DNA of 45,881 bases from Vermamoeba vermiformis (Eukaryota): NCBI GenBank assembly GCA_045837725.1, contig JBEWZL010000043.1, forward strand, positions 186,001-231,881, read 5' to 3'. Below are positions 2,137 to 35,957 of this stretch, piece after piece. The notes under the pieces were generated by a model that saw only the letters and a program-made list of their open reading frames with translations, was not told the origin of the DNA and did no database searches. Numbering within the stretch: position 1 is the stretch's first letter; every line of letters begins with the position of its first letter. The translations under genes and the position numbers were made by a program.

Positions 2137-2259
2137 GCCTTCAAAATAAAAAACTGTTTCACGAAACACGTGCAACTTTTTTTTTGTTGCTTCCGCACTG
2201 CTTAACACAGCACTGAGCCGTATATATTTGTAAATATTTAGTATTATAATTAGTGCAAT

Positions 2260-3652: not shown

Positions 3653-3752
3653 TTAAGAGAAATTTTAATTTTATACTAATAGTACACAGCTACAACTTCG
3701 CGTGACGCGCGACTCGTTTAACTTCATTCTCTTCGTCCTCCTCAGCTCCTAG

Positions 3753-4967
3753 TCATTCATTCGGCTCGGGACTGAAGTTCGCTGCATTCTTCTCGGCCTC
3801 TACTTCTTCTTTTGCGGACTCTTCTTTAAGTTTTTTTTTTTCGTCCTTGCTCCAAGCCTCGATTTCAGGAGGTGGCAGGACTAAGTCACCGCCCACGTCT
3901 TGAGGTAGATTATCGATGTCTACGATCTTCTTGAGTGTCTCTTTGTATTTTTTGTTGTCCAAAAAGTGGATCTGAGCGAGGTATAAGGAAGTGCGGTTAC
4001 TTGAGCTATTTATGGATTTCTTACCTTTTCACGAGTATTTTTGTCCATAAAAGCCTTAATGATTTTCCACTATACACGGTTTAAGGTTAATACTCGTTGG
4101 TATCGTGGATGCGTTTAACTTACAGCAGCCAAAAAAATCCAAGGATGATTCAAGATTAAGGCTGAGCCAAGTCGCTCGGGATAATAGTTTTGGAATACAT
4201 CTAAGCACGCTTTGGCAATGCTAAAGTCGTTGTGTTTGTTTGAGTAGCTCGCAAGATCCATCAGCACGAGAATTCGTTCGACGCCTTTCATTCTTGAAGC
4301 AGTTATTGATTATTACGGTGCGCTCGAGTAATGAGTAACTTACGAGGCAATAAGACTCTCCAATACGTATACAAATAGCCTCACTGTTCCTTCATGATCA
4401 CGTTTGTTCGGATTGTAACGCTCCATGCGCACTGCTCACATTAACAAAGGGTTTGATCATGACGAAAATTACACTTACTATATACTACTGGGCGTCCGAA
4501 TTTGTCTGGTTTTGGAAGCACGTAGTAAACGCCCCACCGACTCACTAGATTGACTTTCGGATCCGAGAAATCAATTACTCCGAACTCCTTTCGCCATTTC
4601 TTAGCAACAAAAAATTAGTGCATGCGAAAAACTCGTATCATGCCGGTTCGGAATTCCGTGGTGGGAATTACAAAATATTTAAATTAAAAATTGTATCATT
4701 ACCACAAAGTTTAGCAGCATCTTCGTTGAGTCCTTCATATTGTATTTTCGTGCGCGCAAAAATCTGTAATAAAATGCATCGTCGTATTGATCTGCTTCGG
4801 TTCCTAAAGCGGTTTTAATGTTGCCTTTAAACTGCTCAAATATCTATAAATGATGTATTGATCAATACCGCCGCATTCCGTGCCACGATATTACTAACCT
4901 TGATTTGCTCGGCAGTAGGCGGATCGAACAAAGGATTGTATTTTCTCTCAATTTCAGGATCGGCCAT
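3753..4967 (-). CDS. Multi-exon CRAL-TRIO (Sec14-like) lipid-binding protein
   Basis: Exon encoding QNYYPERLGSALILNHPWIF and C-terminal IDNLPQDVGG, both typical of CRAL-TRIO; start MADPEIERKY at 4967. Confidence 0.85.
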
Positions 4968-5096
4968 TCTGTGTTGCTTTCTTGATGTTGATCGTAGGTA
5001 CTCACTACGTGGTAGGCATGAAAATAACAATATCCGCAGAACATTTTTTCTTGCGCCCTATTTTTAGTCATGCAATCTTATTGGTTTGGATCGGGT

Positions 5097-6287
5097 TTAT
5101 TTCGAAACACTTTCGAGGTATATTTCGGTCGCACTTACTACATCACTCCAATTAAGTCGTTTTGCTTGCATTTGAATTTCACGGACCACGGCCGCGCTAA
5201 ATTTAGGTGATTTCAAAAGTTCGAGGACTACGGATTCGTGCCTATTTTTGACTGCCATGTGGAGAGCTGAATTGTCTTTGTCCGTGGGATCGACACGAGG
5301 GTCCTGCAGTAACAGGCCTACGATGTCGGTGTGACCTTCTATTGCTGCCCAGCGAATTGGTGAGTTGTGCAAAGCGGTCGGATCCACCCGCTTGTCTTTG
5401 AGCAGCACGCGCACGGCATGGAAACTGCCTTTCATTGCGGCCATGCGTATAGGCTCGTTGTCATTAATAGTCGGATCCACTGACGGAGTAGCAAGTAGCA
5501 ATGGAATTAGCGCGAAATTTCCGTACGTCGCGGCGGTGACCAGCACGCTCGAGCACGCTTCGGCATTGTTCACTCGTCGCTCGTAATCGAGCATCATGAC
5601 CGCTATTTCGTTGTGTTTGTGCTGCACGGCAAGTTGTAAGCCCTGCGTGATATCGACATTAGCTGCTTGTGGTGCTAAGTAGTCTACAATGTGTTTGTAT
5701 CCAAGAGTGCACGCCTGTGTTATTGTCGCTGTGATCGCGTGGCGCTGATTAGCATTGTCTGCAAGGGACTGATAGAGCAGTTTGAAGGCCTCGAGGTGAC
5801 CGTTTTTCGAGGCACGTGGTATGGCTTCTACAGCAAGTAGCTCTTGATCTTGATTGTCAGGGTGCTTCATAATGAGATCGATCACTTCGCACTGATTTAA
5901 ATGTGCACAGCTGAGCAGAATATGTTTGAAAATCGATGCTCCGTTAGACAGAGTTTGCGGTACCAAGTTGTGGTGAAGCAGCAGTTTGATGATTCCGAAC
6001 TGTGCTTGGTCTGCTAGCAACATGACGTATAATGCGACTTCTGCTGGTAATATTTCTGCTTTTGTCTTGGGATTGCCAAGGATCATTTCCAACATGCGAA
6101 GATTGTGAGCCAGAAGGGACATCTTAAATACTCTTTTAACGTCTTCTATAAACCTTGGATCTGATAGTAAAAATTTATAGGCTAAATTCGAGGTCTGCTT
6201 CGAGACAAAGACCCATTCGATCGGGCAGTAGGACAGAACTTCGTTGGCGACTAGCTCGCGTGGTAATAATGCGCCATATTTTGCCAA
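5097..6287 (-). CDS. Ankyrin-repeat protein with F-box-like N-terminus
   Basis: 396-codon ORF with repeats such as VDPTINDNEPIRMAAMKGS and VDPTALHNSPIRWAAIEGH; N-terminal LPRELVANEVLSY..WVFVSK. No in-frame ATG at the ORF start, so the true start is uncertain. Confidence 0.85.
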   Translation of the reverse strand: MAKYGALLPRELVANEVLSYCPIEWVFVSKQTSNLAYKFLLSDPRFIEDVKRVFKMSLLAHNLRMLEMILGNPKTKAEILPAEVALYVMLLADQAQFGIIKLLLHHNLVPQTLSNGASIFKHILLSCAHLNQCEVIDLIMKHPDNQDQELLAVEAIPRASKNGHLEAFKLLYQSLADNANQRHAITATITQACTLGYKHIVDYLAPQAANVDITQGLQLAVQHKHNEIAVMMLDYERRVNNAEACSSVLVTAATYGNFALIPLLLATPSVDPTINDNEPIRMAAMKGSFHAVRVLLKDKRVDPTALHNSPIRWAAIEGHTDIVGLLLQDPRVDPTDKDNSALHMAVKNRHESVVLELLKSPKFSAAVVREIQMQAKRLNWSDVVSATEIYLESVSK

Positions 6288-6610
6288 AAATTCTTCACTA
6301 TTGATCGTTTCATTATCGTTACCTTTGTCTTTTTTAATTATTAATTCAAAAAAAGCAGATCGAAGAAATTAATTTTCAATTTCAGAAATGACCAGATTCT
6401 AACTTTAACAACAAATTTGGTCGTGTTAGGGGCCATTACCGATAATAAAAATAATTTGTTGACAAACTTACGTCTTTTTGCGGCTCTGTCAGTCGCGATC
6501 TTCAATCGGTCTTTTGTGCATCATTCAGTATTTTATAAAACATAAATATTTACAGTTGTGCTCGTGTAAGCTCAAAATTGTACAACTTTATTCACAAAAA
6601 TTTCGCTGAG

Positions 6611-8020
6611 CTATTTTTTGTCTGGCTCACTGGTTTCACCGCACCAAAACCCTTTGCAGGGCTCAAATTCACCTGTGTTCAAATCCCAATTCATATATCT
6701 CGGTGTTACTTTCGAGTAGTCTATCGTGTTGTTGGGCATTTTGACTCCAAGCCATTTCTTTACTACCCTCTCTGGCGGCGCCTTTTTGAAGTTGATGCCC
6801 TCATTCAGGCCAATGTGCATGATGCGACTGACGCGCGGCACCAGCGTGAGCGTTTTTTTGCTATTTCTCCACTAAAATAACAGTTGAAGTTGAGCCTCGC
6901 ACAAAGTAAGATCGTTTGCAACTTACGCGTCCAAGACTAATGTCCCAGTTACCGAACCAACCCCATTCGGGACTCACATCGGCCCATTGTTCGTCAGTCA
7001 TTACCCAGCCAAGCAATGAGGTGTGCTTGTATGGGATCAGCAAATCAATGTTAGGATTGTTTTCCTCTTGGGAGCCAAGATTGAATGACGACACCGTGAA
7101 GACTTGTGGTTTGAGTGTCTTGTTGCGGATAATATGCTTCTCGCTCCACTTCATAAATTCGTAAAAGTCCACGGACGGCTTCAGATCTGCTTCAAGTACG
7201 ATAACTGCGTCAAACTAAAAACAGCATTAGTTCTTTTGACTCGTCTATTTGAACTATATTCGATGTTACCTGGTAGTCGTCGAGTGCTAGGCTGAGTAGA
7301 AAATAAGTGTTCCACGAGACATTCACGTCACCGCCTAACAATCCAAAGTACGGCTGTCTGTGCCTGTAGTGCACGATGTTCAACTTCGATGCAAAAGACG
7401 CAATTACTTCAGCGACTCCTTTTTTGTTGCCGTCTTGTGAAATGATCACTGCAGTCTAATGCGCAAAATATTAATCCGAGTCGTACTATTTGACCGATTG
7501 CAAGTGCCTACCTCATTAATATTTTGACAATTTGAAAGCGCTTCAAGCACTTCTCGTAGCACTTCTGGACGATTATACGCTGGTATTACAATCGGTAAGG
7601 CAGACGTTTGTTTCTTAACGCGCAGTAATAATTCTGAGGGATCGCCTAATTCCCATCGTCCACGAGTAAGTAGCGCCGATATAAATAATATCTCGGCAAT
7701 TAAGAAAAAGGCAGCGACTCCAATAAGTTTCTGAAAAAGTGAATATTTAATAATAAGATTATTTTAATATTTTGTTTAAACATGATAATTACACGACTAA
7801 AGGTCACAAATAAACAAGGTTTGCACCAAACTATAATTAAATAAAATCAAATAAATATTTTACATAATTAGTAAGAATGTCAAAACAATCGTTTGATCCA
7901 AATCTGTTTTGCTTTGAATAAATAGCAAAAAAAACTTTGAAATATTGCAAAAAGTATTATTAGAGTTTAAATTACCTTTTTTGACGTATTGGAAAACATT
8001 CCCGGATCGGATCTACCCAT
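6611..8020 (-). CDS. Multi-exon GT13 family (GnT-I/POMGNT1-like) N-acetylglucosaminyltransferase, type II membrane
   Basis: LPIVIPAYNRP, IISQDG, VIVLEADLKPSVDFYEF, VSSFN, WD and PRVSRIMHIG motifs match the GT13 pattern. Confidence 0.75.
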
Positions 8021-15286: not shown

Positions 15287-17825
15287 TTAAAATGGCCTCA
15301 ATGGAGGAATACAAATGTAAATTGTGTTGTTCTTTGCGCCCACTGAGAACTCAAACAAAGCAAGTGACTTTTCAAGCATCCAATTATGAGCTGTAGCCAA
15401 AGTCTTGAACGCAAGAGTCTCATTCTCGACCTCTTTTGTAATGAAAGAGTACTGCAGCAAAGTGTAGTTGTGATGTGCACCTTCAGGTAATCCAGCACCA
15501 AGCAACACAGAACGCTTTTTTTGGGCAGTAGGTAGCTTGACATTCAGAAAAGCGTGGGTTACTGTAAAGTTGTTAGTGTAAAGTTTACAGTTTACATATT
15601 TCAGTGGCACGTACGGTAGTATAAATACTGGTGCAGGGAAGAGGAGGTAGCCCCCCTGGCTTGCCCAGTAGGGCCCAGCAAAAACGATTTTTGCATCACT
15701 CCTCTTTTTGTTAACCAAAGTATGAACTTGCCAAGCCTGAGTTCCCCTTGAACAGAGATTAGATTAAATAAAACAAGTAATGGGGCACTTACATGCATCA
15801 GTTTTTTCATAGACTGAAGACACTGTGACTCCACATTCATGCGAAAATTCTGAAATGGCGGTTGGTGTTTCTTCAAGGTTATTTTCTTCTTCACCAGATT
15901 CACCAACCTCCCCAGCATCGTAACCGTCTACAGGCTTTTGTTGTTTGGCTGGTGCAGGCCTAGTGCAATTAGTAACAGTGCTTTATGTGTAATTAATATG
16001 CTTACAAAGGTGCCTTTTTATGCTTAGATACAGGAGTACGGGCTTGTTCAGGTTCCCCTTCTTCTATCTCCTCCTCAACATCAATTGGTACCCTGGAAAA
16101 TAAGTAAGTGTAAAGTGTAAAGTGTAAAGTTTACAGTTTCACTTACGATTTCGCTCCCTTTTTGCTCTTCTTTTTTGCACTTTGGGTCACTATTCTCTCC
16201 CCTTTGCCACAATTAGAGCAAATAATGATATTTTGTTTGACTTACGAATTCCAGCAAGCCTCTTTTGTTCTGCCTTGTCCACCATTGAAGTTCCACCCAC
16301 TATGGGTGTGTGTGACGCACGACATCCAACACTGCTCCGAGCTCAATGATTGAGGGACTTTCATCGGAATTCTGAAGGATTAGAGCACCATTGCTAGCTG
16401 TTCGTGCAACTTCCAACCAATCAACAGTCAGATGTGCAGAAGAGGTCTTCTTTTTTGGTGGTGCCTTCACAATAGCATACCATGTCTCTTCACCCTGCCC
16501 CAGAACAGCAACAAGAGACGATTTGTGGACAGTTGCTAAAACATCTGCAGTAGCATATGGTTGGGCTGAGGCGTCACGTAAGCCTGCCAACGAACGCGGT
16601 TAGTGTAAAGTTTACAGTGTAAAGTTTACAGTGTAAAGTCTACAGCTGTACGTACCTTCGGGCAAGGATGTTTGCTTAGTTTTCTTTTCCTGCTGCTGCT
16701 TTGCTGTTGTCTCCCTGCGAGGCTTGCTATTCTTGCTGGTAGTATGATTGCTGCGCTCCTCGCTGCTATTTGCATCACTTAAGTCAGCTGCAGAGCAAAT
16801 TCAGAGTTAGATCACCAAAGATTGTTTTAAATGTAACTTACCTTGCTCTTTTTCTTCATCGGATTTGTCGGAAATGTTTGAGCGATCATTTGTGCGTTTG
16901 CTACGACTATTTGTTTTCTTGGCAGCACCTTTGTTGTCGCGATCTGGTGTGGGATTAGTGAAAGTGGAATTTGTTGAGATTTGAGATGAGACTTACCCGT
17001 ACGCTTCTCAGAGCGGGACTTGCCAGGTGCATGAGCGTGTTGATCATCCTCATCATCGGCATTATTTCCATCAGTTTCAGCAACTTTGGTGTTACGATCT
17101 GGTGCGGGATTAGTGAATGCGAATTCGCTTCAGATTGAGATGAGACTTACCCTTTTGCTGCTTGGGGTGGGAATTGCTAGGCACGTGAGGACGCTGGTCG
17201 TCCTCCTCATCGGCGCTATCACCATCAGTTTCAGCACCTTTGTTGTTGCGATCTGGTGCTAGATTAGCGAAAGTGGAATTTCTTTAGATTTGAGATGAGA
17301 CTTACCTGTTCGCTGCTCGGAGCGGGACTTGCCAGGCGCGTGAGGACGCTGATCGTCCTCCTCATCGGCGCTATTGCCATCAGTTTCAGCTCCATTATTG
17401 TTGTTAGCTGACACGAGATTAGCAAAAAATTAGATTTGGAGATTCGAGATGAGACTTACCTTTTTGCTGCTCAGAGTGAGACTTGCTGGGCGCATGAGGA
17501 CACTGGTCATTCTCGACATCAACGCTATTAGCATCTGCTTCCGCACTGTTGTTGTTGCGATCTGGTGCGGGATTAGCGAAATTGGAATTTCTTTAGATTC
17601 AAGATGAGACTTACCTGTTTGCTGCTCAGAGCGGGACTTGCTGGGTGCATGAGGACGCTGGTCGTCCTTGTTATTGATGCTATCAGCATCGGTTTCTTCC
17701 GCTTTGTTGTTTCGATCTGTTGCGAGATTAGCAAAACTGGAATTTCTTTAGATTCGAGATGAGACTTACCTGTTAGCTGTTCGGAGCGGGACTTGCTGGG
17801 CGCGTGAGGACGCTGGTCATTCTCC
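15287..17825 (-). pseudogene. 5'-truncated multi-exon nuclear protein with tandem 34-aa exon repeats and a Tudor/SH3-barrel-like segment
   Basis: Repeated exon NNNGAETDGNSADEEDDQRPHAPGKSRSEQRT; segment SSLVAVLGQGEETWYAIVK..LTVDWLE; frameshift in a (CA)n run at ~16305-16314; breaks off mid-exon at 17825. Confidence 0.6.
16840..17825 (-). repeat. ~155-bp exon+intron tandem repeat, 5 full copies plus one truncated and one diverged copy
   Basis: gagatgagacttacc (reverse of donor GGTAAGTCTCATCTC) recurs at ~16983, 17137, 17293, 17446, 17601 and 17756. Confidence 0.9.
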
Positions 17826-18221
17826 TTATTATATATACTCTAGGGCTAAAATTTTTGCTAGGGTTTCTTGTGTATTGATTTTTTCAAATAAATAAACAAA
17901 AATTTCAAAACACTGTTAAAAAAAGCGTCCCCACTGAGGGGATGCTTTTAGAAAACCGTCCCCTGCGTGGGGACGCTTTTGGCCTTTTTTCCTTTTATGG
18001 TAATGATAAATTTTTAAATCAAAAGAGAATGGCCTAAGAGCATAGCAATAGAAGGGTAGAGTTGTCTAGCTCTAAACCAGCTTAATAGAAATTTCTTTAA
18101 GATTATTTTTGTTTTTCAGGAGCCCTAGAAGGAGCCAAAAATAGGATCAAGGAAAACCATGCTTCAATTATCTCATTCTATTAAACAAGTGCTGGTAGGT
18201 CTTTTACTAATGTACTGAATC

Positions 18222-18337
18222 TGGCCCCTGCTAGCAGGTTTACCAGGGCTGTTGAAAACATGAAAATTTGGCCCCTGCTAGCAGGTCTACCAGGGCTGTC
18301 AAAAACATGAAAATTCGGCACCTGCTAGCAGGTCTAC
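18222..18337. repeat. 47-bp tandem repeat (3 copies) centred on palindrome CCTGCTAGCAGG
   Basis: Palindrome at 18227, 18274 and 18321 with a shared spacer taccagggctgt..aaaacatgaaaatt. Confidence 0.9.
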
Positions 18338-18423: not shown

Positions 18424-18800
18424 CCCCTTTGTGGGGACAGGGTAGGCATCTCCTTCGTGGGGAGGGGGTAGGCATCCCCTTTGTGGGGATGGGGTAGGCA
18501 TTCCTTCGCAGGGACGGGGTAGGCATCCCCTTCGTGGGGACGGGGTAGGCATCTCCTTCGAGGGGACGGGGTAGGCATCCCCTTCATGGGGACGGAGTAG
18601 GCATCTCCTTCGTGGAGACGGGGTAGGCATCCCCTTTGTGGGGACGGGGTAGGCATTCCTTTGCGGAGACAGGGTAGGCATCCCCTTCGTGGGGACGGGG
18701 TAGGCATTCCCTTTGTGGGGACGGGGCAGGCATTCCTTTGCGGAGACGGGGTAGGCATCCCCTTCGTGGGGACGGGGTAGGCATCCCCTTTGTAGGATGC
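18424..18800. repeat. 24-26 bp G-rich minisatellite (gtggggacggggtaggcatccccttc), ~14 copies
   Basis: Directly visible; tcccc-N5-gggga inverted repeat across unit junctions; solo copies at ~17926, ~17977 and ~18872. Confidence 0.95.
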
Positions 18801-18923
18801 ACCTGCCAAAAAGAACACTACACAAACTTATTGAAAGTATTTGCTATGGATATTCTTACAACACAGCACACATCCCTTGTGTGGGGATGCAAAGGTAGAA
18901 AAGGAGTTGAAAAACTGCTTTTG

Positions 18924-18959
18924 TTAGGGCTAGGGTTAGGGTTAGACATAGGGTTAGGG
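18924..18959 (+). repeat. Interstitial telomere-like tract, six in-register hexamers
   Basis: TTAGGG CTAGGG TTAGGG TTAGAC ATAGGG TTAGGG. Confidence 0.75.
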
Positions 18960-19084
18960 GCAGTGGATCAAAGAAGCAGGAGTGTTTACAGCCATCGGGT
19001 TTGGGAGCAAGGAATGGCCCCCAATGGCTGGAAATTGGCATGGAGAGGGCCTGAAAAAGTTTAACAAAAATCAGAGCAAAACAA

Positions 19085-22000
19085 ACGAAATTGAACATGA
19101 ACATCTTAATTCAATTTCGTGACAGCTTAGAAAGATAGCTCCAACAATGAGCTATTGGGACCAGTAAGGGTCCCTGATAAAATTGATAAGGTAAGCGAGA
19201 AATAGCGATGGGTCCCAAGGGCGCTCGAGGGGATCAGGATCGCTAACTTTAAGAGAAATATTCATTTGAGATTTTAATTGATTAGATGTTGTTTAGACTG
19301 CCGAGAAACAACGCGGAAAAATACCAGAAAAATTCTCGGTCCCCAGGAAGTGGAGAAAACGTTGCGGAGATCCGCCTTGTCAAATTGACGGATCGAAGAA
19401 GAGCAATGAACAATTAATGGCTTTAGTATAATTTGGGGTATGTAATAATAACAATTCTGGCAATAATTTATTTTTTGGCTGTTTGAGGTCAGATTTGAAC
19501 CTCGATCTCAATTTAAATCTGCGAGATGAATGAGATTCTCGTTACTCGCGTCATCCAATTGTCTCATTAGTTTAAATAAAATCATTTTAAGAAATTCTGT
19601 GTTTATTACAAACTTAGCCAAGATCGCACCCGTCAATTTTTCTTCAAGTCCGTGACAGATCGACCACAAGGGTCGAATTGAACATTCAGCTGATTTATTA
19701 TTATTATTTAGACGCTATTTCAATTGACAGTAACACGCCACGGCATCAGAGCCGTTACAGCGCGAGTTATTTTTGGAACAAACCGGTTGCGAAATTGGTA
19801 GATCGACCACAAAGGGTCGAATTATTGATTATGTATTAATTATTAGCACCTGTTAGTGACGCGCCACGACGACAAAGTCGTTCAGCGCGAGTAATTTCGG
19901 ATTAATCAAAATCGCACGCGTCAACTTTAGAAACTATTTTTAAAACCTTAGACAGATCGACCACAAGGGTCGTTTTATTTATTTTTCCGTTTATTTACAG
20001 CTGATAGTAACGCGCCGTGGCATCAGAGCCATTCCAGCGCGAGTTATTTTGGAGGATCTGCGGATTAGAGCTGATGCGAAAATGGCGCACGGGCTATTTC
20101 GCATCAGTAATTCAACAGAACAACCACAAAGGTCGTTATATTTATTTATTGTTGTTTATTACCAGCAGACAGTGCCGTGCCACAGTCAACACGGCCGTTC
20201 AGCGAGTTATTTTGAGGATTGACAGTAGCAAATCTAGGATTCGCAACAGATCGACCACAAGGGTCGATTTGGTCAATTAGATTGGTCGTTTATTATTAAC
20301 ACACACGTGCCAAACGACATTCAGCGTTGTTCCAGCGCGGCGTTAAGATCGCGAACAAGTAGGCGAACAATCTCGGTGCAGAGACCGAGAATATTCAAGG
20401 TAATATTTTCTTAATATCCTTCCACCATCTTTATAATTATAATATCGTAAATTCAATTTTTAAGTTTTCAATTAAAAAATCAGATCCGGATCGAGCTTAG
20501 TGCTCGGATTTTATCCGGATTTTTAATTAATAACGATTAAACTATATTAAGTACAACATACTGACACGTAATTTTCTATTTAGATTTTCCTTACGAACTT
20601 TAAGCGCGATCGAAAGTTCCAGCTACTTTCGATGCGCGAGATCCCGACCACCAATGGTCGTTTCATGGTACACTGGCACTTTCCGTTCGTGTACCACTGC
20701 TGGGACCATCACCACTGCTCGCCGACGGCTTCGGTTACAAGATGACGAGATCGGATGCGTTGGACGCATCAAAATAATTGGTAAGTTTGATTTTAATAAT
20801 ACCAACAACCAATAAGACGCAAGGAATGCGTCATTTTCAAATTTAAAATTACACTAATAATTTAAATTAAATTGTTATTACGGATCGAGCTTCGCCCTTC
20901 TGTAAAATTAAAATTGTTGTTCATTTCATTACTAAAACAAAATATTAATCACTATTTAAAAGGCTATTGGAACGTAAGCAAAGATGCGAGTGCTAGATCG
21001 AGCGCGACAGTCGGACCGCTCGATGACTGGCAATGAATCAAGCGTAAGTAGATTAAATCTTATATTTTATTGTAATTTAGTATTTTAATGCGTTTTATTT
21101 AGGTTTTATACATTCACGATGACATATCTCGAACGTGATCTTCTCGCGTTAACAGTTTCGATACTCTGTGAAATATAGCCCTGTAAGTATTCCCAGCCTC
21201 AGATATTGGTAGGTACTAACGTGTTATATCATTAGAAATGGACAATGCAAGCCCTCAAAAAAATTATCAAGCTCGAGATCCACCGCATTCGGATTCAACT
21301 TTTGATAGGGCATCGATCATGCCATGGTGAGTTCAAAGCTTTTACAATAACCAATATATGCTAATACCAATTCTATTACTAATTTTAGTTTATTTAGGAC
21401 TTAAACGGATGAGAGCACAGGATCCCGCTCGGGATAGGAGCTGATCTATCCCGTTATTTAAACGATCGCATGAGGACTCCTAGACGCGGCAAGTAAGTAC
21501 ATAGTTTACCATGGCTAGTACTAACACTTTAATAATCTAGAGTTGCGCAAGGCACTGATTAGACTAGTAGGCGTGGATCCGAGATGCATCGATCTCGATC
21601 CAGTAAGTACTTGACAGTGCGCATCGATTGCGCCAAAAGTAAGTAGATCGCATTAAACACTGATTCTATAACTTACTGATATAGTTTCTACTTAGAGAAG
21701 AGCACATTAGCAGTTTTTACGGATGTTAAAATGCGATCTGACGAGGATTTATTGATTCATGCCAAATTATGGTCCCGTAAGTAATAAAAGACGATCACCC
21801 ATATTATCTCAAACTAATATTTTTACTCAGAGGCTATCAATTCGGCGACATTATAGAGAAATCGAATCCGCAACGACTTTCACCAGATTTTTCGATTTTT
21901 AGAACGCACCAAGATCTGACGAGCAATTTTAAACTTGTAAAAGTATGGTAAACTTGTAATAGAACTTAATAAAGCAATTTCTTGCTTATAAATTGATCTA

Positions 22001-24450
22001 TAAATCTTGCGGTTGGGAATCACGAAAGATTTCGCTGGTTAGTTTTTAAAAACTTTGACAGATCGACCACAAGGGTCGAAATATTTATTAAAAATTGTTA
22101 ATTAACAGCAGACAGTGACGCGCCACGGTCGCCACGGCCGTTCAGCGCGAGTTATTTCGAAGATTAACAATGCGAATCTTGGATTCGCAATAGATCGGCC
22201 ATAAGGGCCGATTTGTGCATTTTCACTGTTTAGATATTATCAGTACACACGCGCCAAACGACATTCAGCGTCGTTCCAGCGCGGCTTTAAGATCGCGAAC
22301 AAAACGCGATCAAATCTCGGTGCAGTGACCGAGATAAATTAAGGTAAGATTTTTTTATACACTTCCGCCATTTATAACATTAATCTATCGTAAATTCAAA
22401 TTTAAAAAATTAATTAGATCCGGATCGAATTAATTAGTGCTCGGACTTTATCCGGATTTTTAATTAATATCGATGAAACAATACTAAATATAATATATTA
22501 ATACTTCATTTTTTATTTAGATTGTGCTCACGATTTTTTACCGCGATCGAAAGTTACCGATGCCATTAATCCGTCAAGACCCTTAAAATAACTCGGTAAG
22601 TTTTTTAATATATTCAATGGTGATAGAATAATCGTACCAATGCGTCGATTATTCATTTCAAAATCAAGTTAAATTTTTTAAAATTATATTGAGTCAGATC
22701 GAGCTTCGTGCTCGTGCAAAGTTTAAATTATTGGTTATTATACTATCAATACAATATAATAATGGTTTTTTGAAAGGTTATTTCGGTGTCGTCTGCGCAG
22801 ACGTGATGTGTGGATCGTTCGCGAAGTCGATCGCTCAATCCCCGCTAATTCTTCAAGCGTAAGTAGTTTAAATTTATTATATTATTACTATTTAATATTC
22901 TAATGCTATTTATTTAGGCGTTAAAAGTTACACGGGACGGATCTCGAACGCGATCTTCTCGCGTTGTTAGATCCATTACATTGCTTGTGGTGGACCGGTA
23001 AGTACATATACATATAGAAACCATCCATAACTAACGCATTATATCAATAGAAATGGCGAAGGAGACTTCTGTTGAACATTTACCAGATCGGGATCCAACG
23101 CGTCTCGATCAGGTAAAATTTCTCTACGGGGCATCGATTGCCTTAAAGGTAAGTGATCCCCCTTATATATTAATATTTTAATCAACTGATGCTAATTTTA
23201 CGCCTAGGAGATGACACGGAGCTGGGGCCAGAGATCGCGCACAACTAACCCGATCTCTCGTAAGTTCAGTGACGCGCATTGATCGCGTCAAAAGTAAGTA
23301 AAATTGATTTTGTATTATTATTGTAAGATACTAACATCTTTATTTCTTATTAGAACCGTTGGATAGAATTTTTGGTGGATTTGGTGGCGTAAATTTTGGA
23401 CTTGGCGCTATCTCGGATCGCTGACAAAAGTACGGCTCTCAATAGGTAAGTTAATTTACGCTTTTATATTATATCTAATCAATTATTAACTCCTTGATAT
23501 TGTAGAGTTGAGGCGTGTTTGATTTCGCCACAGATCCCCGCGGGGCCCCATTGATCCCGCTTCAGTAATTAATTGCGCGCATCGATCGCGCTGAAAGTAA
23601 GTAAAACATGTTAATAACTCTTATTACAACAATTTGATATCATTTTTATTTCTTTTAGATAAGAGTGCGTTAGCATTATTTACGGATGCTGAACGCGATC
23701 TGACGCGAGCAATTCTGATGGTATACGAGAATTTAATGATCCGTAAGTAGCATAAAACGATTAACAGTGTATAATAATCTAATCTATTTCCTCAGAGTCA
23801 TTGAATTTGATGACGCTATAAAGAAATCGGATCCGCAACTTGAACGGATTCACGACTCAAAAACGAAGTTGGAAGCATGAAGGTAAGTTCTTTTAAAGAC
23901 ATTAGTTATTTTTATGGGCTTACTAACGTGGTTTTACGAGTAGATTCAAGTACTATTTATTTACGCCACCGATCTTTGAGGCCCGCGTTGATCCCGTTCA
24001 AGTTTACGCAATTAGCAACGTAAGTATTTACAATTATTAGTATAAATGTTATTGAAAATAAATTGAGATAAAGTAATTGAAATAAATTGTAGGGATCATC
24101 ACCACGAAAATAGATCGGCGCTAAATCTAACATTAACACTGCGCATCGATTGCGCCAAAAGTAAGTTTAAAGCGTACATTACCAAATACAATATTTTAAT
24201 ATCTTTAATTAATTATAGTTTGATAACACGAGACTGACTTAGCGGATGTGCGCGGGATCTGCGCGCTTAATTTTCAAGATAGGCGAAGATTCAAGACCCG
24301 TAAGTAATATATAACGATTGTGCTATACAGTGACTAACATATTATAGCAGTAGATTGGCTAAAACAGTTAAAGTAGCGAAGAAATGCGATCCGCAACTTG
24401 AGCGGATGCGCGATCCTGAAATTGGCGGGTGATTGCTTGGTAAGTATTAT
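19085..24450 (+). ncRNA. Putative long, multi-exon, hairpin-dense non-coding RNA locus (may extend to the AATAAA at ~25855)
   Basis: More than 20 GTAAG/GTGAG donors with CTAAY..YAG acceptors, all on +. Exons 20963-21043 and 24219-24299 have stops in all three frames. Most exons contain stems, and internal duplicates show compensatory changes. Transcription is inferred, not shown. Confidence 0.65.
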
Positions 24451-24600
24451 TTTCGTTTAAATATAATATTAAAGTGTTGGTTTAATTATTATATGAAATT
24501 TAATACTGCCTCGTTAACTTTTTTTTCAGTTTTCTGTCGGTTTTCTGTGATCACAGAAAACTGGCTGACGAGATTTCTTGGCACATGCTTTCGTTTACGT

Positions 24601-28370
<3,770 letters not shown>

Positions 28371-31300
28371 TTTGCCCATGTCAGTTGTGCGGATCGAACA
28401 AACTTTGTTTTAATTGAACCGCTATGTAAAACAGAAAAGCTTGCCTAATGCCCTTTAAAATATACATAAATATATTCTAATGGACTGATAGTCTGCCAGC
28501 GAGCGAATCTGGCAACAGGATTCGCAAAATATATTTCAAAATTTAGTGCGGATATGTTAATAACTTGCTTGGTCATAATATATGTGAAAATTGGTAATAT
28601 TCCGATCGATTTGGAAGGTGCTACAGAACAGCGAGAGACAATTAGATTCAATTTTTTAAATCCGCTTTGGCCCGAAGCTCGCAACTAACCGCACTTCTGC
28701 AGAGTTTCTTGTTTTTGCCGGAGGATTGGGAGCTTGCGACCATTTCAATGCCTGAGGTTGTTTCTATGAAGGTGCCGAACGCTCGCTGTCATACCGGGAG
28801 TTGCCAAACCACTGGTGACGTTTATAAGTAAGTAGCTTCAAAACTGGAGAATCACGCTTAGCCTTCTATCGTAGGTTACCACAGCTGGACAATCTTTACT
28901 GTTTCGGATGTCTCAGCTCTGGAAGCGTATTAATCAAGGAGAACGCTCGTCCTTTTGCCGAAGAAGCTAAACTGAGATATCGGTTGTAAGTTTTGGTTTT
29001 TCTAGCCGATGGCATTTAACCGCACATTGCAGCGAAAACTTTCGGAAGATCGCACGGCACCAGGTCATGAAGCTTATCGAGAAAGCCAAAGTTTGGGACA
29101 ACGCACAGGGAGCAGTGAGCGCAACACTGCTCGTCAACAAGAAAGATAGGTCACAGTTTACCTACAGTGTCTTTGCGGGTAAGTTTCAATAGCATGGATG
29201 CTCGGGATCCCGATCTAACCAAGTACAATTAAGGTCATCACCGAGCTTTTGCCATCCGGCACTTGATGGGGCGGTTGCAGTTTCAAAATTACTGCATAAA
29301 GGTGTTTTTGTTTCCCAATGAAGAGGTAAGCAAGTAGAATCTTAGCAATTTTCATTGGTGCAACTAAATACTCTTTGCATAGGAGCTACGTAAACACAGC
29401 ATCCAATTGCAAGAGCTGGAGGAGATTACCATGGAAATGTGTCCCATGGACAAGGTTGTTGCCGCTCGCAAGGAGATCGAATTAGCCTTCGAAGATAGCC
29501 ATGTAGACAGTTATGATAAACTGTCTGCCGTGATGGTGGCCCACCTGAAACATACATATGGAGGTAAGTAGCTAGCCAATTCTTAATATGTATTTAACTC
29601 CGCACTATTGAACAGCGGAGAACGTCAAAATTGCCTCCGCAATTCCATTGCCTCTGCTCGAAAAATTACGTGAGCTCAGTTTGTTCACGCTTGCCTTTGC
29701 AGATGCGTCAGAGTAAGATCGGCCGAGAATTTAGATGATGTTCTGCTAATCAAATCTTAGAACTCCTTTTCCGAAACGTTCTCTAGCTTCCTTTTGCACC
29801 GGCTCGACCCAAGAAGAGATCTTCGAAGTTATAAGTCCGTTGATCGATGAGTACTGGCAATATTATAAGTACTGTAAGTGTCACCAAGTTATTTAAATTT
29901 TTTAACTTTAGTTTATTTAGTGTATACGTCAAAAAATATGGTACAAAAGAAAAAAGGCCAGTTCACGAAGGCTACGCTGGATGAGTGGCTAAAAGAAGTC
30001 AGGGAAAAGCTGGCTAAAATTGAAATTGAGCCCGGTAAGTTCAATATATTAGTAGAACTTAATAGCTAATTGGTTTATTAGAAAAAACTTACGAAATGCC
30101 CAATGTAAACCACTCGTTGTATTATAATAAGATACAACGACAATTTTTTGATGCTTGCGAGAAAATCTTGGACATGAAACAAGTGAGTATCCGCTGAGAA
30201 TTATTTAACAACTCATTCTTACCGTCTTCAGGCTGCATGGCCAAAAGAGCTGACCTCAAAAGCTAAGGTAGTGTTTGATACCAAGTGTATCAAGCACTTA
30301 AAGGAATGTGAGCAGAAGAAGAGCTACACGCTAATAGCTTGGGATAGTGACCAGTACAAAGCAGATATTCAATCTCTGCAATGTGGCTTGTACTGGCACA
30401 TGCCCAAAGAGACTCTGCTGGAAACGGCCAAAGCCGAAGACCTTCCCGTGGTTTTGGCTTTGCCGAAGTTTCCTCAAGATGCTGACCTTGCCGTTGTTAG
30501 TGGATACAATGGGCTTATACTTGGTACGTAATTCAATTTTGTTTACATTATTCTGACTACCTTTAGTACCAATGGTTGGAAGTCACAACTTTGTCACCGA
30601 GGCAAATACTTTGTTCTTCAACATTGCTGGAACTGCTCTGTCATTGTTGGTGAAGAATCTGAAGCTTCCTAGTGGACAATTAGCGAACGAGTACTTCGTC
30701 GAAGTACTCACACGTTCTTATTTTGCCCTTGCTTCGGTAAGTACGTCAACTACTTAACTGTCGTCTCATGTTGTTTTGTTAGACCGAATTCTTCATGAAA
30801 CAAAGGCTTGATAAAAATAATTTTGAGCAACAGTTGCCAATGACAATTTTATCTTGTTTGAATGCACGTAAGTACTCAAATCCGTTTTAATGATAGTGAC
30901 TAACCCTTGTGTAGTGCATATTTGTTGTGGCAAAAAGTGTGCAAAATTGGCTGTCATTGGAGAGATGACTGAATCTACTATGGTGGACTTAATGCACTAC
31001 TCTCTCTCCATTGCCCATTGCTCAAAGACGGCACTTGGGAACCGCACCATCCCTCTTCCTGCTTGTTTGCCAGAAGTGCAGTCTGTGGTTAAAGTTGCTC
31101 GAAGTTGGCTGCCAGCAGGCAGTCAGCCCAATCAGCCCAATCAGCCCAAGAAGACACTTGCCTACCAAATAAGGCTTGGAGCTTTGGCTTCGGAAATACA
31201 ACGGCAGCCTATTCCCACCCCTGTTGTAGTTGTTTTCAGTGGTCAGCCTGGAGGTGAAAGGCATGACATTAACAACCAGGCATGCATCCCGCCAACTCTC

Positions 31301-33341
31301 CCTTTTCATGGTTCACGTAAGTTACAACGTACCAAGTTTAGACTAGTTTATAATTGTTTTAAATCTAGGATGGTACCCAACCGACAAATTGAGCTTGGAT
31401 GACCTCGAGCAGGTCAGCAAAGGGGAGGATGAGATAATCAAGCTTCTGTGGCCGAATTTATCTTGTAATGTTGCACAATTTTCGTATTTCTATTCTTCTG
31501 GCTGGCAAACACACGGATCCGTAAGTTTGACTAAGCAAATATTTTGTGTTTGTAACATTTGCTTTAGGGTTGTGCTCAAAAATACCTTTTGTTGCCAAAT
31601 TTCAAAGGATCAATATTTTGGGTGGTTGGTAAGGCCAACGCAGGTGATGTTATCCCAGCACGTAAGTAAAATTACGTATAGTCATATCATTTTCTAACTA
31701 ACTTTATGATACAGTCAATGCCGGAGACAAGCTTATGGCGAATTATTCGGCATTCCTACAGTCTCCTGGGGAACAGATCGTTTTACCAATCGCGACAAAG
31801 CGCTATTACTTCTTCGTGCTGCCGTCTTGCAGTCCTGGGGGTGAATGTAGCAGCACAACGGCATTTCTTGTGCGGCAGTGGGTGCTTACAAGGCATGAGG
31901 CTTTTTACATCTCTCTTGCCAAGCAGTCAAAGCTGGATTTCCTATGGATTTTACTACAGTTTGCAAACAAGCCATGGACAATGAGCATATCGAAGAATAT
32001 TTTCGATCTCTTCCGTGAATTTATCAGTGATTGGCTTACGTTGGATGGTCTGACAGCACTTGTCTGTGAGGATAAAAATGGCTTCTCTGGTTGGAAATAT
32101 TGCAGTACTTGCAACAGTGTGATGTCTCTGCTGGTTTTGTACTCCCAGAGTCTCGTAGCTTATTGCATCCGCTGTATGAAGACTGCCTCTGTTAGAACGC
32201 AGAAATGTATCACTGCAGTCGCTCTGGGTCAGAACTCTGCCAAGTTTTTGTTAGTTCAAGTTGCACGGTAAGTGGCAGCGATATTTGTTCAAATAGTAAC
32301 TTGCAGCTTCGCAGGGCAATTTGCAATTTAATTAATGGTCCCCATTATCCTACTACTGAGAAGGAAAAGCACTTGCAGACAGCCAACAAGCATCTTCAAG
32401 TACTTATTGAAAAGGCTAAAGAGTCTAAAAGCGAGATAATTCCAAAATTGCCTATTGCATTTTGGCGTGGAGAACCAACTATGACCTTCCGGCCCAAAGA
32501 TGAGTTGGAAGATATCGAGCCCTACACAGGAAAAGAAGAGCACTTTTCAATGAGTCATCGCGAAGCAGCAAACGACGCAGCGAGCGAGGCAGAGAGAGAA
32601 GCAGAGAAAGGAGCAGCGAGTGAGGAGCAAGAAGAGGAAGAAGAAGAGGATGACAGCGAAAGCCTTCAGGATAGTCGCAAGAGACCAGGAGAGCCACTTC
32701 CAAACCCTCAAGCAATGAAGAAGCCAAGGACGGCATCGCAACCTCAAGCTAAAAAATAATCTTTGTATTCATAAATAAACTACTGTGGAGCAGTTTTAAA
32801 TAGCAAATCGCCCTCTTCAGCATTCTTGGTACTGTACGGCTCTTTGGTCGCACCAGCTGCTAGTTCACACAATTGGTGTAACGAGTACGCAGTACAAAAA
32901 ATTGTACTCTTTCTTTACAACTTTTTTATTGATAAATACTAAGATAATGTAGAATATTTAATATGCATAAAATAAAAGCAATTGATGTGCAGTTATTCAG
33001 TCATTGTAGTTATTCAGGTGCGGATGTGCTGAACAGCTTAGCAAATATGCTTGTCAGGATATCGTGAAGGGTTTTGAGGGCTGTCTGGAGTTTTTTCCTG
33101 GCCGATATAATCCAAATCCAAGTCGAAATCGGTATTTCTCGGGCCTTCATGGTTTGGATCTTGACGCTCGGCTTGTGCTCGTTGCTTTTCCATGTAATGA
33201 TGTTGAAAGTGTGGGTAAGGGTCTTCACTTAAGTCCTCTTCTTCTGATTGGCTGAAACTTTACAAAAAATATCAGTTGTAGCAAAAACCGTTCATTGTTT
33301 GGTCTGTTTTTCATCGTACACCACGCAACTGCCACAACATA

Positions 33342-34868: not shown

Positions 34869-35805
34869 GGCGTCAGACGGTCTGACGGCCTCTGGCAAGG
34901 GGGGGTGCATCAGACGGTCTGACGGCCTCAGGTGCAAAGGCATTGCACATGCACCTGCACCTGCACCCTCAGTCATGCACTGCAACAGCAAAGGGCGTCA
35001 GACGGTCTGACGGCCTTGGGATGGGGGGGTGCGTCAGACGGTCTGACGGCCTCAGGCAAGGGGGGGTGCGTCAGACGGTCTGACGGCCTCTGGCAAGAGG
35101 GGGTGCATCAGATGCAATGACCATGCACCTGCACCTGCACATGCACATGCATCCATGCACTGCAACAGCAAAGGGCGTCAGACGGTCTGACGGCCTTGGG
35201 ACAGGGGGGTGCGTCAGACAGTCTGACGGCCTCTGGCAAGGAGGGGGTGCGTCAGACGGTCTGACGGCCTCAGGCAAGGGGGGGTGCGTCAGACCGTCTG
35301 ACGGCCTTGGGACAGGGGGGTGCGTCAGACGGTCTGACGGCCTTGGGATGGGGGGGGGGTGCGTCAGACGGTCTGACGGCCTCAGGCAAGGGGGGGTGCG
35401 TCAGACCGTCTGACGGCCTCAGGTGCAAAGGCATTGCACCTGCACATGCACAGGCACCCCCTTTTCCTGCACTGGGGCAGCAAAGGGCGTCAGACGGTCT
35501 GACGGCCTCGGGCAAGGGGGGTGCGTCAGACGGTCTGATGGCCTCAGGCAAGGAGGGGGTGCGTCAGACAGTCTGACGGCCTTGGGACAGGGGGTGCGTC
35601 AGACGGTCTGACGGCCTTGGGACAGGGAGGGTGCGTCAGACGGTCTGACGGCCTCAGGCAAGGAGGGGGTGCATCAGACAGTCTGACGGCCTTGGGACAG
35701 GGGGGGTGCGTCAGACGGTCTGACGGCCTTGGGACAGGGAGGGTGTGTCAGACGGTCTGACGGCCTCAGGCAAGGGGGGGGTGCGTCAGACGGTCTGACG
35801 GCCTC
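34869..35805. repeat. ~37-bp tandem array, 21 copies of the 17-bp palindrome CGTCAGAC-N-GTCTGACG
   Basis: Counted directly; G-rich spacers of two main types (ggccttgggacagggg / ggcctcaggcaagggg); interrupted by TGCACC tracts. Confidence 0.95.
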
Positions 35806-35957
35806 AAGCAAAGAGGTGTTGCATCAATCAAGCTAATACTATTAGAATAGGGAAGTACGTAAGAGAGGCAAACAGTCTAGAGATGATGGCACATAGGTTC
35901 GACTTTGGACTGTAGTCTTTGTGCTTGGGGAAGATGTTAGGGTATGTAAAGGGGGGA

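Follow-up and report, generated by a model that had tools for sequence, protein, structure and literature searches.

Organisation of the module locus

Examination of the window, by which we mean the whole 45,881-nt stretch analysed, revealed at ~19.1–24.5 kb a CpG- and GATC-rich locus of + strand orientation, apparently a lineage-specific, multi-copy, intron-bearing, gene-like and non-protein-coding transcription unit. The CpG observed/expected ratio is 1.72 at the locus vs 0.86 for the remaining window. Palindromic tetramers are enriched (CGCG 5.4x, GCGC 3.5x, GATC 2.8x), and the donor-type hexamer GTAAGT occurs 21 times against a single ACTTAC, a strand bias of 21:1. Judging by intron type, which appears fungal, the host eukaryote is probably not a mammal. 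No credible ORF was found at the locus and none covers the modules described below; the two longest ORFs of the region formed by the modules and unit A (92 and 93 aa) gave no Pfam family.

The locus carries seven copies (M1 to M7) of a module in which two different hairpins (H1 and H2) are separated by an AT-rich spacer (Table 1). M1–M5 lie in tandem with start-to-start spacings of 143, 154, 163 and 131 nt, that is a period of 131–163 nt, while M6 and M7 stand first in the second unit of a tandem duplication of 1.94 kb, which created the paralogue pairs M4/M6 and M5/M7. Both units have modules at their 5' edge, with five ahead of unit A and two ahead of unit B. At an overall identity of 63%, six of the eight unit-A donors recur in unit B to within one column, and most of the indels that separate the units are of a length not divisible by three. 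The body hairpins are poorly kept from one unit to the other, with 31 pairs disrupted, 6 compensated and 9 one-sided.

When the locus was compared by blastn with itself and with the window, none of the 34 matches listed was in reverse orientation, and no TIR or TSD was seen. A MITE or foldback transposon was rejected on the lack of reversed self-matches among those listed and on the position of all seven modules on the + strand.

Table 1. Coordinates of the modules, tandem units and associated features, in window positions.
Feature	Position	Strand
H1-like stem-loop upstream of the array, GGGACC-AGTAAG-GGTCCC	19157..19174	+
M1 H1, TCGACC-ACAAG-GGTCGA	19658..19676	+
M1 H2, outer stem with one A.C, inner stem ACGGC/GCCGT	19734..19764	+
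M2 H1, loop ACAAAG	19801..19820	+
M2 H2, inner stem ACGAC/GTCGT, a G-C to A-T double change	19860..19889	+
M3 H1	19955..19972	+
M3 H2, inner stem GTGGC/GCCAT, C-G to U-A double change and one G.U	20011..20041	+
Unit A: M4 and M5, two more hairpins, then short intron-separated segments	20115..22057	+
M4 whole, decayed copy; H1 reads GAACAACC..GGTCG	20118..20204	+
M4 H2, decayed, with A.C mismatches and a 2-nt deletion	20176-20204	+
M5 H1, extendable to 10 bp with one G.U	20247..20271	+
M5 H2, outer CGTGC/GCGCG, inner AACGAC/GTTGTT, two G.U pairs	20306..20339	+
H1-like stem-loop in unit A, CGACCA-CCAA-TGGTCG; missing from unit B; DNA word depth 22740	20645..20660	+
Unit B: M6 and M7 with homologous body	22058..24030	+
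M6 H1	22061..22079	+
M6 H2, inner stem extended to 7 bp, ACGGTCG-CCA-CGGCCGT	22119..22149	+
M7 H1, ATCGGCC-ATAAG-GGCCGAT, A-U to G-C double change	22193..22212	+
M7 H2, inner stem AACGAC/GTCGTT	22250..22283	+
Canonical intron, GTAAGT..CTAAT..TAG	22859..22917	+
Canonical intron	23149..23207	+
Partial third copy of the last 290 nt of unit B	24141-24413	

Conservation and pairing of the two hairpins

A search with the H1 query GATCGRCCAYAARGGYCG, allowing up to 3 mismatches, gave seven matches, all on the + strand and starting at the module positions of Table 1 (20249 in M5), against 0.09 expected; none of 100 shuffles attained seven. A covariance model, applied to the entire window with filters off, returned exactly these seven copies (E 3e-22 to 4e-16; next match E 0.12) and so bore out the count of the first-pass annotation, whose coordinates all match the sequence. 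H2 had been listed there for four modules, correctly for those four, and is in fact present in all seven.

H1 consists of a 5–7 bp stem (up to 10 with G.U) closed by an A-rich loop of 5–6 nt, and H2 of a conserved 5-bp outer stem and an internal loop bearing a variable inner stem of 5–7 bp. Identity among the copies is 0.96 in the H2 internal loop, 0.92 in the H2 outer stem, 0.89 in the H1 loop, 0.84 in the H1 stem, 0.72 in the H2 inner stem, 0.56 in the AT-rich spacer and 0.52 in the H2 apical loop. The earlier statement that loops vary freely is thus true of the H2 apical loop and wrong for that of H1. Read from the sequence, this gradient is the pattern expected of a putative recognised motif on a structural support. 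The inner stem of H2, only 0.72 identical, is nevertheless paired, which argues that pairing rather than sequence is kept.

Over 18 pairs (119 cells), 92.4% of stem cells are paired, vs 24–38% when the 3' partners are slid by 1–3 columns. Double-sided changes that preserve the pair affect four pairs (6 cells), and the observed values were attained by 4/500 and 1/500 shuffles. RNAalifold independently gives both hairpins, with 16 pairs, four of them showing double changes. The A-T to G-C swap previously reported at 22193 is genuine (ATCGGCC-ATAAG-GGCCGAT vs ATCGACC-ACAAG-GGTCGAT at 20249), as is the degeneracy of the copy at 20118, M4, whose decay extends to both hairpins. The non-Watson-Crick stem cells comprise four G.U and three A.C, two of the latter in M4, and most of the differences between M4 and its paralogue M6 fall at CpG. 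The hairpins look preserved as structures. The base of compensatory evidence is thin, because with M4/M6 and M5/M7 being duplication paralogues the seven copies amount to ~5 lineages and 3–4 independent double changes; CpG transitions, which are mutationally easy, account for two of the double changes.

The 751-nt array folds with z = -6.6 on the + strand vs -5.95 on the - strand, and the mean for 120-nt windows is -30 and -43 kcal/mol in the two blocks of modules vs about -22 elsewhere. Sliding-window folding shows no strand bias, and single mismatches in near-perfect hairpins at the locus are G.T in five cases vs A.C in three. These strand tests therefore fail to separate RNA from DNA. The earlier proposal that paired substitution indicates selection on structure rather than on codons agrees with the kept pairing and with the lack of an ORF or Pfam family, and would hold for constraint on RNA and on DNA alike.

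Copy number, RNA reads and the spacer

Word depth in a DNA run reveals a multi-copy family. Depth at the hairpins reaches ~100 times baseline and peaks, for the locus, in H2 of M7 (21947–29204 vs a baseline of 273). Reads from three RNA runs, whose libraries look unstranded, match conserved hairpin pieces with foreign flanks and hence come from paralogues; none in these runs lies fully on the present locus, and the neighbouring coding gene (28.7–32.8 kb) also has zero depth. RNA read numbers do not track DNA depth: at 22818 a DNA depth of 1383 goes with 56 reads, and at 22262–22276 a depth of 21947–29204 goes with 5. The family paralogues are transcribed, and the modules with them at least in the paralogue whose reads contain H1. 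After 22844, 46 paralogue reads continue as the next segment and not as the intron 22859..22917, and three others begin their match exactly at the 23207 acceptor, preceded by the upstream hairpin segment; from these flanks, read by eye, we infer that the canonical introns of the paralogues are removed. Reads of one paralogue include H1 together with 10 nt before it and no fewer than 33 nt after it (a loose end shared by 5 reads), which suggests that the AT-rich spacer stays in the RNA, although precursor RNA could explain them.

Rfam gave no match at gathering score across the window, and between 19400 and 24600, with E up to 10, only three weak miRNA-like matches, none of them on modules. A spliced-leader RNA or Sm-class small nuclear RNA was rejected, covariance-model matches at gathering score in the window being zero. 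No relatives were found in three collections.

The spacer measures 38–40 nt in six of the seven copies and 58 nt in M1 because of an 18-nt insertion; in five out of five further genomic copies, reconstructed from contig joints, it measures 38–39 nt with unrelated filler. The linkers from H2 to the next H1 vary from 23 to 76 nt. All seven spacers start with GTCG(A/T), and a YAG directly precedes H2 in five, in line with the earlier remark that they mostly end so. A CTGAY branch-like motif lies ahead of the final AG in four copies and abuts it, and a TTTATTA-like motif occurs ~8–21 nt upstream of H2 in 6/7 spacers, those of M2 to M7 (by eye). Downstream of H2, three copies have AGTTATTTTTGG, AGTTATTTTGG or AGTTATTTTGA (an uninterrupted U4-5, then G), two more have a T3-interrupted run, and M5 and M7 have no U-run.

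Possible origins and functions of the module

We tentatively favour, at rather less than an even chance, a reading in which two structure-constrained stem-loops at fixed spacing lie in the 5' part of a family of spliced non-coding RNAs and are probably repeated docking sites. The seven modules would be duplicated copies of one element, constraint would act at the level of the transcript, and the H1-spacer-H2 units in tandem may offer an RNA-binding factor a multivalent set of docking sites. The logic would be that of Xist repeat A, where hairpin cores are separated by single-stranded spacers and lie close to the 5' end of a non-coding RNA that is spliced. The modules share their orientation with the 21 GTAAGT sites. 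Tandem hairpin cores with unstructured spacers are found here by pairing, folding and RNAalifold. The likeness to Xist repeat A is one of analogy and not of homology: there is no sequence relation, the lineage is different, the modules consist of two distinct hairpins fixed 38–40 nt apart, the locus belongs to a multi-copy family, and protein recruitment by the array is putative. Constancy of spacing to +/-1 nt is more often a trait of composite sites in DNA than of linkers in RNA, which are flexible, and so counts against docking sites on RNA, as do the poorly kept body hairpins of units A and B.

The hairpin richness of the whole window means that a genome-wide DNA process could be at work. 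A DNA-level palindromic repeat, satellite-like or transposon-derived and without RNA function, is a minority possibility to which we give some weight; template switching or gene conversion would make and perfect the inverted repeats, and transcription would be incidental. Hairpin-forming tandem arrays (26-, 37-, 43- and 47-nt units) abound in the window, which contains 234 perfect hairpins vs 102 in shuffles (2.3 times); the enrichment of CGCG, GCGC and GATC, the equally good folding of both strands and the hundredfold DNA word depth at the hairpins point the same way. Replication template switching is reported, in one study (PMC8794818), to create and maintain hairpins having perfect stems and apparent compensatory changes without selection on each side. 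Pairing-driven DNA repair, however, does not explain the conservation of the asymmetric H1 loop and of the H2 internal loop, and template switching explains neither these loops nor why the distance between the two unlike hairpins is fixed. The spacer sequence drifts, yet the order and orientation of the modules and the H1–H2 distance stay the same. In the 43-nt hairpin array an uncompensated mismatch is kept in 10/11 copies (by eye), so that hairpin perfection is not automatic in this genome, and the lack of reversed matches among those listed, and of a TIR or TSD, also argues against such a repeat. Satellites or minisatellites with dyad symmetry resemble the array in their head-to-tail monomers of ~130–160 bp, AT-richness, short inverted repeats, high copy number and low-level transcription; by contrast, the array keeps only the two hairpins and their distance, and sits in an intron-bearing unit. 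Satellite DNA was rejected, since the five tandem monomers are not homogenised (their spacers being the 0.56-identical ones) and have variable linkers of 36–76 nt.

It is unlikely that the module is a DNA-level composite regulatory element, with H1 and H2 as protein-binding or promoter boxes, the monomers as enhancers or promoters upstream of each 1.9-kb unit, and transcription starting downstream of them. The fixed 38–40 nt spacing, the location at the 5' edge of both units, the TTTATTA-like motif and the high CpG ratio would suit such an element, but the inner stem of H2 varies in sequence and length yet pairs, which fits a folded single strand and not a sequence-specific duplex site, and paralogue RNA reads contain H1 and its flanks.

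We also think it quite improbable that the modules are tiny autonomous hairpin-RNA genes, with H1 as upstream promoter box, the 39-nt AT-rich spacer as core promoter, and H2 plus a U-rich tail as a short RNA, possibly Sm-bound or T-run-ended. The fixed H1–H2 distance, the regular period and the U-runs after H2, which we take to resemble an Sm site or a Pol III stop, are consistent with it; the two copies that have no such run, the Rfam results and the reads that pass through H1 and spacer are not.

Least probable is the earlier suggestion that each spacer is an intron whose donor, a non-consensus GTCG, would be sequestered by H1. The spacers are AT-rich as introns are, have the YAG ends and CTGAY-like motifs described, and are less conserved than the hairpins, as introns are relative to exons, but the intron-like intervals of the neighbouring coding gene (28.7–31.4 kb), read by eye as controls, begin with GT[AG][AC]G in 13/13 cases and are at the shortest 46 nt, and the locus itself holds the 21 GTAAGT sites. 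A U2-type spliceosomal intron was rejected on a donor off the genome consensus and a length outside the range and not free to vary; fixed length with drifting sequence, unlike the linkers, argues against an intron, as to some extent does a branch-like motif that abuts the AG, where a distance of 10–40 nt would be expected. At the proposed G/GTCG junction, five reads of run X7 pass from H1 on into the spacer of a paralogue, possibly as precursor RNA, and 13 reads in total cover this border in the same runs that show canonical family introns removed.

Fungal symmetrical (stw)introns and introner-like elements are comparable in being multi-copy, structure-prone and associated with spliceosomal introns in a GTAAGT/CTAAC-type genome, and a study of proliferating fungal (stw)introns proposes that symmetry matters for their spread (PMC8469720). 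Those, however, are bona fide introns of protein-coding genes with canonical signals and terminal inverted repeats of 45–55 nt, whereas here short hairpins lie outside canonical introns, the spacers have no canonical donor and no coding gene is interrupted. An introner-like element or proliferating intron was rejected on the lack of a coding frame around the modules and of a canonical donor, and on the low spacer identity.

Carried further, the docking-site reading would make the locus a member of an undescribed spliced non-coding RNA family of tens to ~100 genomic copies. The segments retained in these RNAs would be GATC-based stem-loops in series, and their tandem-amplified 5' bipartite element, H1 and H2 on either side of a sequence-free AT-rich ruler of 38–40 nt, might act as an array for multivalent recruitment, making it a functional counterpart of Xist repeat A in a non-animal lineage; this fuller picture is speculative, and we hold it at about one chance in four. 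If the constraint acts on RNA, the module would be a compact, repeated and easily mutated structure-defined element of a non-coding RNA in a non-animal eukaryote, a good system in which to identify its binding factor and to study how non-coding RNAs gain function from tandem repeats. Its copies amount to a natural experiment in which pairing and spacing are kept while sequence drifts. If the constraint acts on DNA, the locus would be a case study of palindromic repeats mimicking RNA covariation, and would bear on every covariation-based screen of repeat-rich eukaryotic genomes.

Structure and spacing of the seven modules

Seven copies of one module (M1-M7) lie in the window, each composed of hairpin 1 (H1), an AT-rich spacer and a composite hairpin 2 (H2), in which a small internal loop separates a 5-bp outer stem (CGCGC/GCGCG) from an inner stem of 5-7 bp. 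All the features described in the first-pass annotation were found in the sequence at the places it gave. A search with GATCGRCCAYAARGGYCG, allowing up to 3 mismatches, returned 7 matches, all on the + strand, against 0.09 expected, and none of 100 shuffles reached 7. From M1 to M6 the H1 starts are separated by 143, 154, 163, 131 and 1812 nt. H1-like stem-loops (GACC, 4-7 nt, GGTC) number 9 against 0.70 expected, those at 19159 and 20646 falling within the surrounding locus (about 19.1-24.5 kb).

Pairing with compensatory changes had also been claimed, and it holds on a seven-row alignment carrying an 18-pair structure written by hand: 92.4% of 119 cells pair, and moving the 3' partners by 1-3 columns lowers this to 24-38%. 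Changes on both sides with pairing kept occur at 4 pairs (6 cells), values reached by 4/500 and 1/500 shuffles. RNAalifold, run without the hand-written structure, gave the same two hairpins (16 pairs, 4 with double changes). The covariance model proposed as a check, built from the seven copies and run over all 45.9 kb of the window on both strands with filters off, found only those seven (E 3e-22 to 4e-16), the best other match having E 0.12 and 18 bits. M4/M6 and M5/M7 are paralogue pairs produced by a tandem duplication of 1.94 kb, so that the copies are not independent and amount to about five lineages, over which 3 or 4 double changes are independent. Both hairpins of M4 are decayed, mostly at CpG.

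Identity is 0.96 in the H2 internal loop, 0.92 in the H2 outer stem and 0.84 in the H1 stem, falling to 0.72 in the H2 inner stem and 0.56 in the spacer. The earlier statement that loops vary freely is correct for the H2 apical loop only (0.52), the H1 loop being conserved (0.89). As a repeat, the modules are real, non-random and structure-conserving.

Of the new features, the fixed H1-H2 spacing is the most telling. H1 end and H2 start are 38-40 nt apart in six of the seven copies and 58 nt apart in M1, owing to an 18-nt insertion. In five contigs of X1, a DNA run compared with positions 19000-32800, H1 and H2 are joined by unrelated AT-rich filler, and the spacer (filler plus matched ends) measures 38-39 nt in all five. 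The linker between H2 and the next H1 is variable, with 36-76 nt in the window and 23-50 nt in three contigs. What is conserved is therefore the series H1, a spacer fixed in length and free in sequence, and H2, with order and orientation kept.

Positions of the modules, tandem units and other repeats in the window
Feature	Position	Strand	Detail
M1	19658 (H1 start)	+	
M2	19801 (H1 start)	+	double change G-C to A-U
M3	19955 (H1 start)	+	double change C-G to U-A
M4	20118 (H1 start)	+	
M5	20249 (H1 start)	+	double change G-C to A-U, shared with M7
M6	22061 (H1 start)	+	
M7	22193 (H1 start)	+	double change A-U to G-C; also that shared with M5
Unit A	20115-22057		tandem duplication
Unit B	22058 to about 24030		tandem duplication
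Hairpins with CATCGAT/CATTGAT core	21611-21644, 23121-23154, 23266-23299, 23569-23602, 24133-24166, 21299-21338		
31-nt two-hairpin-half element	24604-24634, 25199-25229, 28311-28341	+	
155-nt tandem repeat	16923-17826	-	5.8 copies
47-nt repeat	18218-18337		CCTGCTAGCAGG palindrome; just upstream of locus
26-nt repeat	18424-18790		14 copies, CCCC..GGGG hairpin; just upstream of locus
TTAGGG-like run	18923-18959		degenerate; just upstream of locus
46-aa open frame	25678-25818	-	closes with stop
37-nt tandem array	34995-35811		GC-rich (63%), about 22 copies, GTCAGAC/GTCTGAC hairpin
TGCACC-type hexamer runs	34.9-43 kb		scattered
43-nt unit, three arrays	44056-44628		11-bp hairpin in each (GAGCGTAGTCC..GGACTACGCTC)

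The duplicated locus and its surroundings

Judged from its sequence, the window is eukaryotic: it contains short AT-rich GTAAGT...CTAAC...YAG intervals, ORFs encoding ankyrin repeats and a SET domain, and a TTAGGG-like run. A tRNA search of the window found none, Rfam at gathering score returned no family over its whole length, and a 511-aa ORF had no usable match in Protein Atlas.

The locus is unlike its neighbours, with a CpG observed/expected ratio of 1.72 versus 0.86 in the remaining window. There are 62 GATC sites in 4.9 kb (about one per 80 nt), mostly at the feet of short hairpins; AGATCG is found 16 times versus 6 for its complement, and GTAAGT 21 times versus one ACTTAC. By blastn, units A and B, the two copies of the duplication, share 78.8% identity across 510 nt at the module end, falling to 71% and 68% beyond it, and overall they are 63% identical over 1801 aligned columns. 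Downstream of the modules, both units consist of short segments parted by GTAAGT...CTAAY...YAG intervals, and six of the eight unit A donors are retained in unit B to within one column, against the 63% background identity. Most indels between the units have lengths not divisible by three. No Pfam family was found for the two longest ORFs (92 and 93 aa) of the module/unit-A region or for the ORFs covering the modules and the largest "exon". Candidate coding frames of about 30 and 72 codons, opened by an ATG common to both units (21236/23053), were rejected, since by eye they are not conserved between units. Nothing in the locus looks coding.

Hairpins of the unit bodies are poorly preserved between A and B, with 31 pairs disrupted as against 6 compensated and 9 one-sided, in a count biased by the picking of hairpins perfect in one copy. 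Well kept in the units are the modules, together with the hairpin that immediately precedes the first donor. Six small hairpins with a CATCGAT/CATTGAT core sit 4-6 nt before GTAAGT/GTGAGT, and in four of them a second donor-like motif (GTAAGT/GTAAAA/GTAATT) lies 32-38 nt upstream, so that tandem donors flank the hairpin. Their stem sequences differ among copies with pairing kept; all six allow a stem of 4 bp or more, but in two registers.

Hairpin-forming repeats are common in the window. A 31-nt element was found three times on the + strand, where none is expected; in it GTCTTGC..GCAAGAC is followed by CCTCCCT, which has an AGGGAGG downstream. A fourth, weaker copy was seen by eye near 28255. 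Each unit of the 155-nt array carries a GTAAGT-type intron on the - strand, and whole exon-plus-intron units have therefore been tandem-duplicated. The 46-aa open frame, whose sequence may resemble methionine aminopeptidase 2, could be a gene fragment.

Relatives of the locus in DNA and RNA reads

In X1 the unique flanks (24.5-32.8 kb) have a summed word depth of about 273, and the locus one of 400-7200 per 461-nt bin. The highest values are at hairpin pieces (8969 at 19757, 22740 at 20644, 16571 at 22081 and 21947-29204 at 22262-22276), H2 of M5 at 20308 being the exception with 870, and spacer and linker positions have 400-1600. Of 670 X1 contigs compared, many have different flanks, and one links a unit end (24405) to a unit start (22058). 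Such results suggest tens to about a hundred related copies elsewhere, arranged alike, with the limits that depth sums do not count copies and that the window may have been derived from the X1 sample. Transitions of the C>T and G>A types account for 60 of the 112 places that differ between X1 contigs and positions 19000-32800, and in one 422-nt contig over 28744-29163 nearly all differences are of this kind. The transition excess on duplicated sequence looks like deamination or a bias of the repeat-induced-mutation kind.

Three RNA runs carrying the same species label (about 38.9 million records) were compared with the 13.8-kb stretch, which 121 reads touch (36, 41 and 44 per run), all as partial matches. 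RNA depth over the neighbouring coding gene at 28.7-32.8 kb, used as a control, was zero in all three, so that the runs are silent on the window copy itself; no RNA joint appeared among the joint-table entries listed. The matches fall on conserved pieces (20372 to about 20400, about 20628-20662, 22051-22089, 22262-22276, 22809-22844 and 23207-23239), and since the read flanks are unlike the window, the reads derive from paralogues. Read numbers do not track DNA depth, with 56 reads at 22818 (DNA depth 1383) and 5 at 22262-22276 (DNA above 21000), which argues for transcription over DNA carry-over.

Read flanks were compared by eye, from printed consensus strings of a paralogue and with no junction calls. 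Forty-six reads exit the window after 22844 and, 13 nt further on, continue with sequence about 76% like the following segment (22918 onward), not with GTAAGT. Three reads enter at 23207, exactly a predicted acceptor, and upstream of it contain a homologue of the 23121-23148 hairpin segment whose stem is different but still paired. Thirteen reads over 22051-22089 take in 10 nt 5' of H1 and then AT-rich spacer, the five with a loose end reading through at least 33 nt of it. On this by-eye comparison of a paralogue, the canonical introns of the family would be removed and the spacer retained. The repeat apparently belongs to a multi-copy, spliced, non-coding family.

Nature of the constraint

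Our leading, still tentative, reading is that the module is a bipartite element under structural constraint, located in the 5' part of a spliced non-coding RNA family, with the tandem copies as putative docking sites. The 751-nt array folds far below its shuffles on both strands (z -6.6 on + and -5.95 on -), module blocks averaging -30 and -43 kcal/mol per 120 nt versus about -22 elsewhere, with no strand bias in sliding 120-nt windows. Stem mismatches comprise 4 G.U versus 3 A.C, two of the latter in the decayed M4. Neither strand test (G.T versus A.C, and + versus - folding) separates RNA from DNA. The conserved asymmetric loops, and an inner stem that covaries, speak for a folded single strand.

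Second in our ranking, and unlikely, is a palindromic repeat acting at the DNA level and maintained by template switching or conversion; template switching (PMC8794818) is the chief non-selective source of apparent compensation. The 43-nt arrays serve as an internal control here: by eye, 10 of 11 copies keep an uncompensated or wobble mismatch at one stem position, and compensation is therefore not general to repeats in this window. A spacing held to +/-1 nt is what one would sooner expect of a composite site in DNA, and a composite regulatory element of that kind, ranked third, strikes us as improbable. Less probable again is that the modules are tiny small-RNA genes; the module family has no match in Rfam. 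The suggestion of the first-pass annotation that the spacers are introns with a GTCG donor comes last and is very improbable, as all seven putative donors are GTCG(A/T) versus 13 of 13 GT[AG][AC]G read by eye in the control gene, the spacer length is fixed and below that of any control intron read, the branch-like motif abuts the AG, and paralogue RNA reads run from H1 into the spacer.

No loci were found for the H1 21-mer in metagenome contigs or prokaryote genomes, nor for the H2 32-mer in metagenome contigs; a single viral-contig match of the 21-mer, inside a GC-rich phage-like coding region, was set aside as chance. Hammerhead and other ribozymes, box C/D and H/ACA snoRNAs, IRE- and histone-type stem-loops, the telomerase RNA template and a U2-like 5' end were dropped without any match. 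A literature search for a description of this family, made by terms other than the organism name, found none. The proliferating symmetrical introns of Hypoxylaceae have intron context and symmetry in common with the modules but, as outlined in PMC8469720, are true introns within coding genes.

For the RNA element that we favour, the closest known architecture, as an analogy only, is Xist repeat A, which according to the outline in PMC8786293 has seven and a half hairpin-forming motifs with single-stranded regions between them near its 5' end and acts as a protein hub. The tandem modules of V. vermiformis may likewise offer a series of docking sites.
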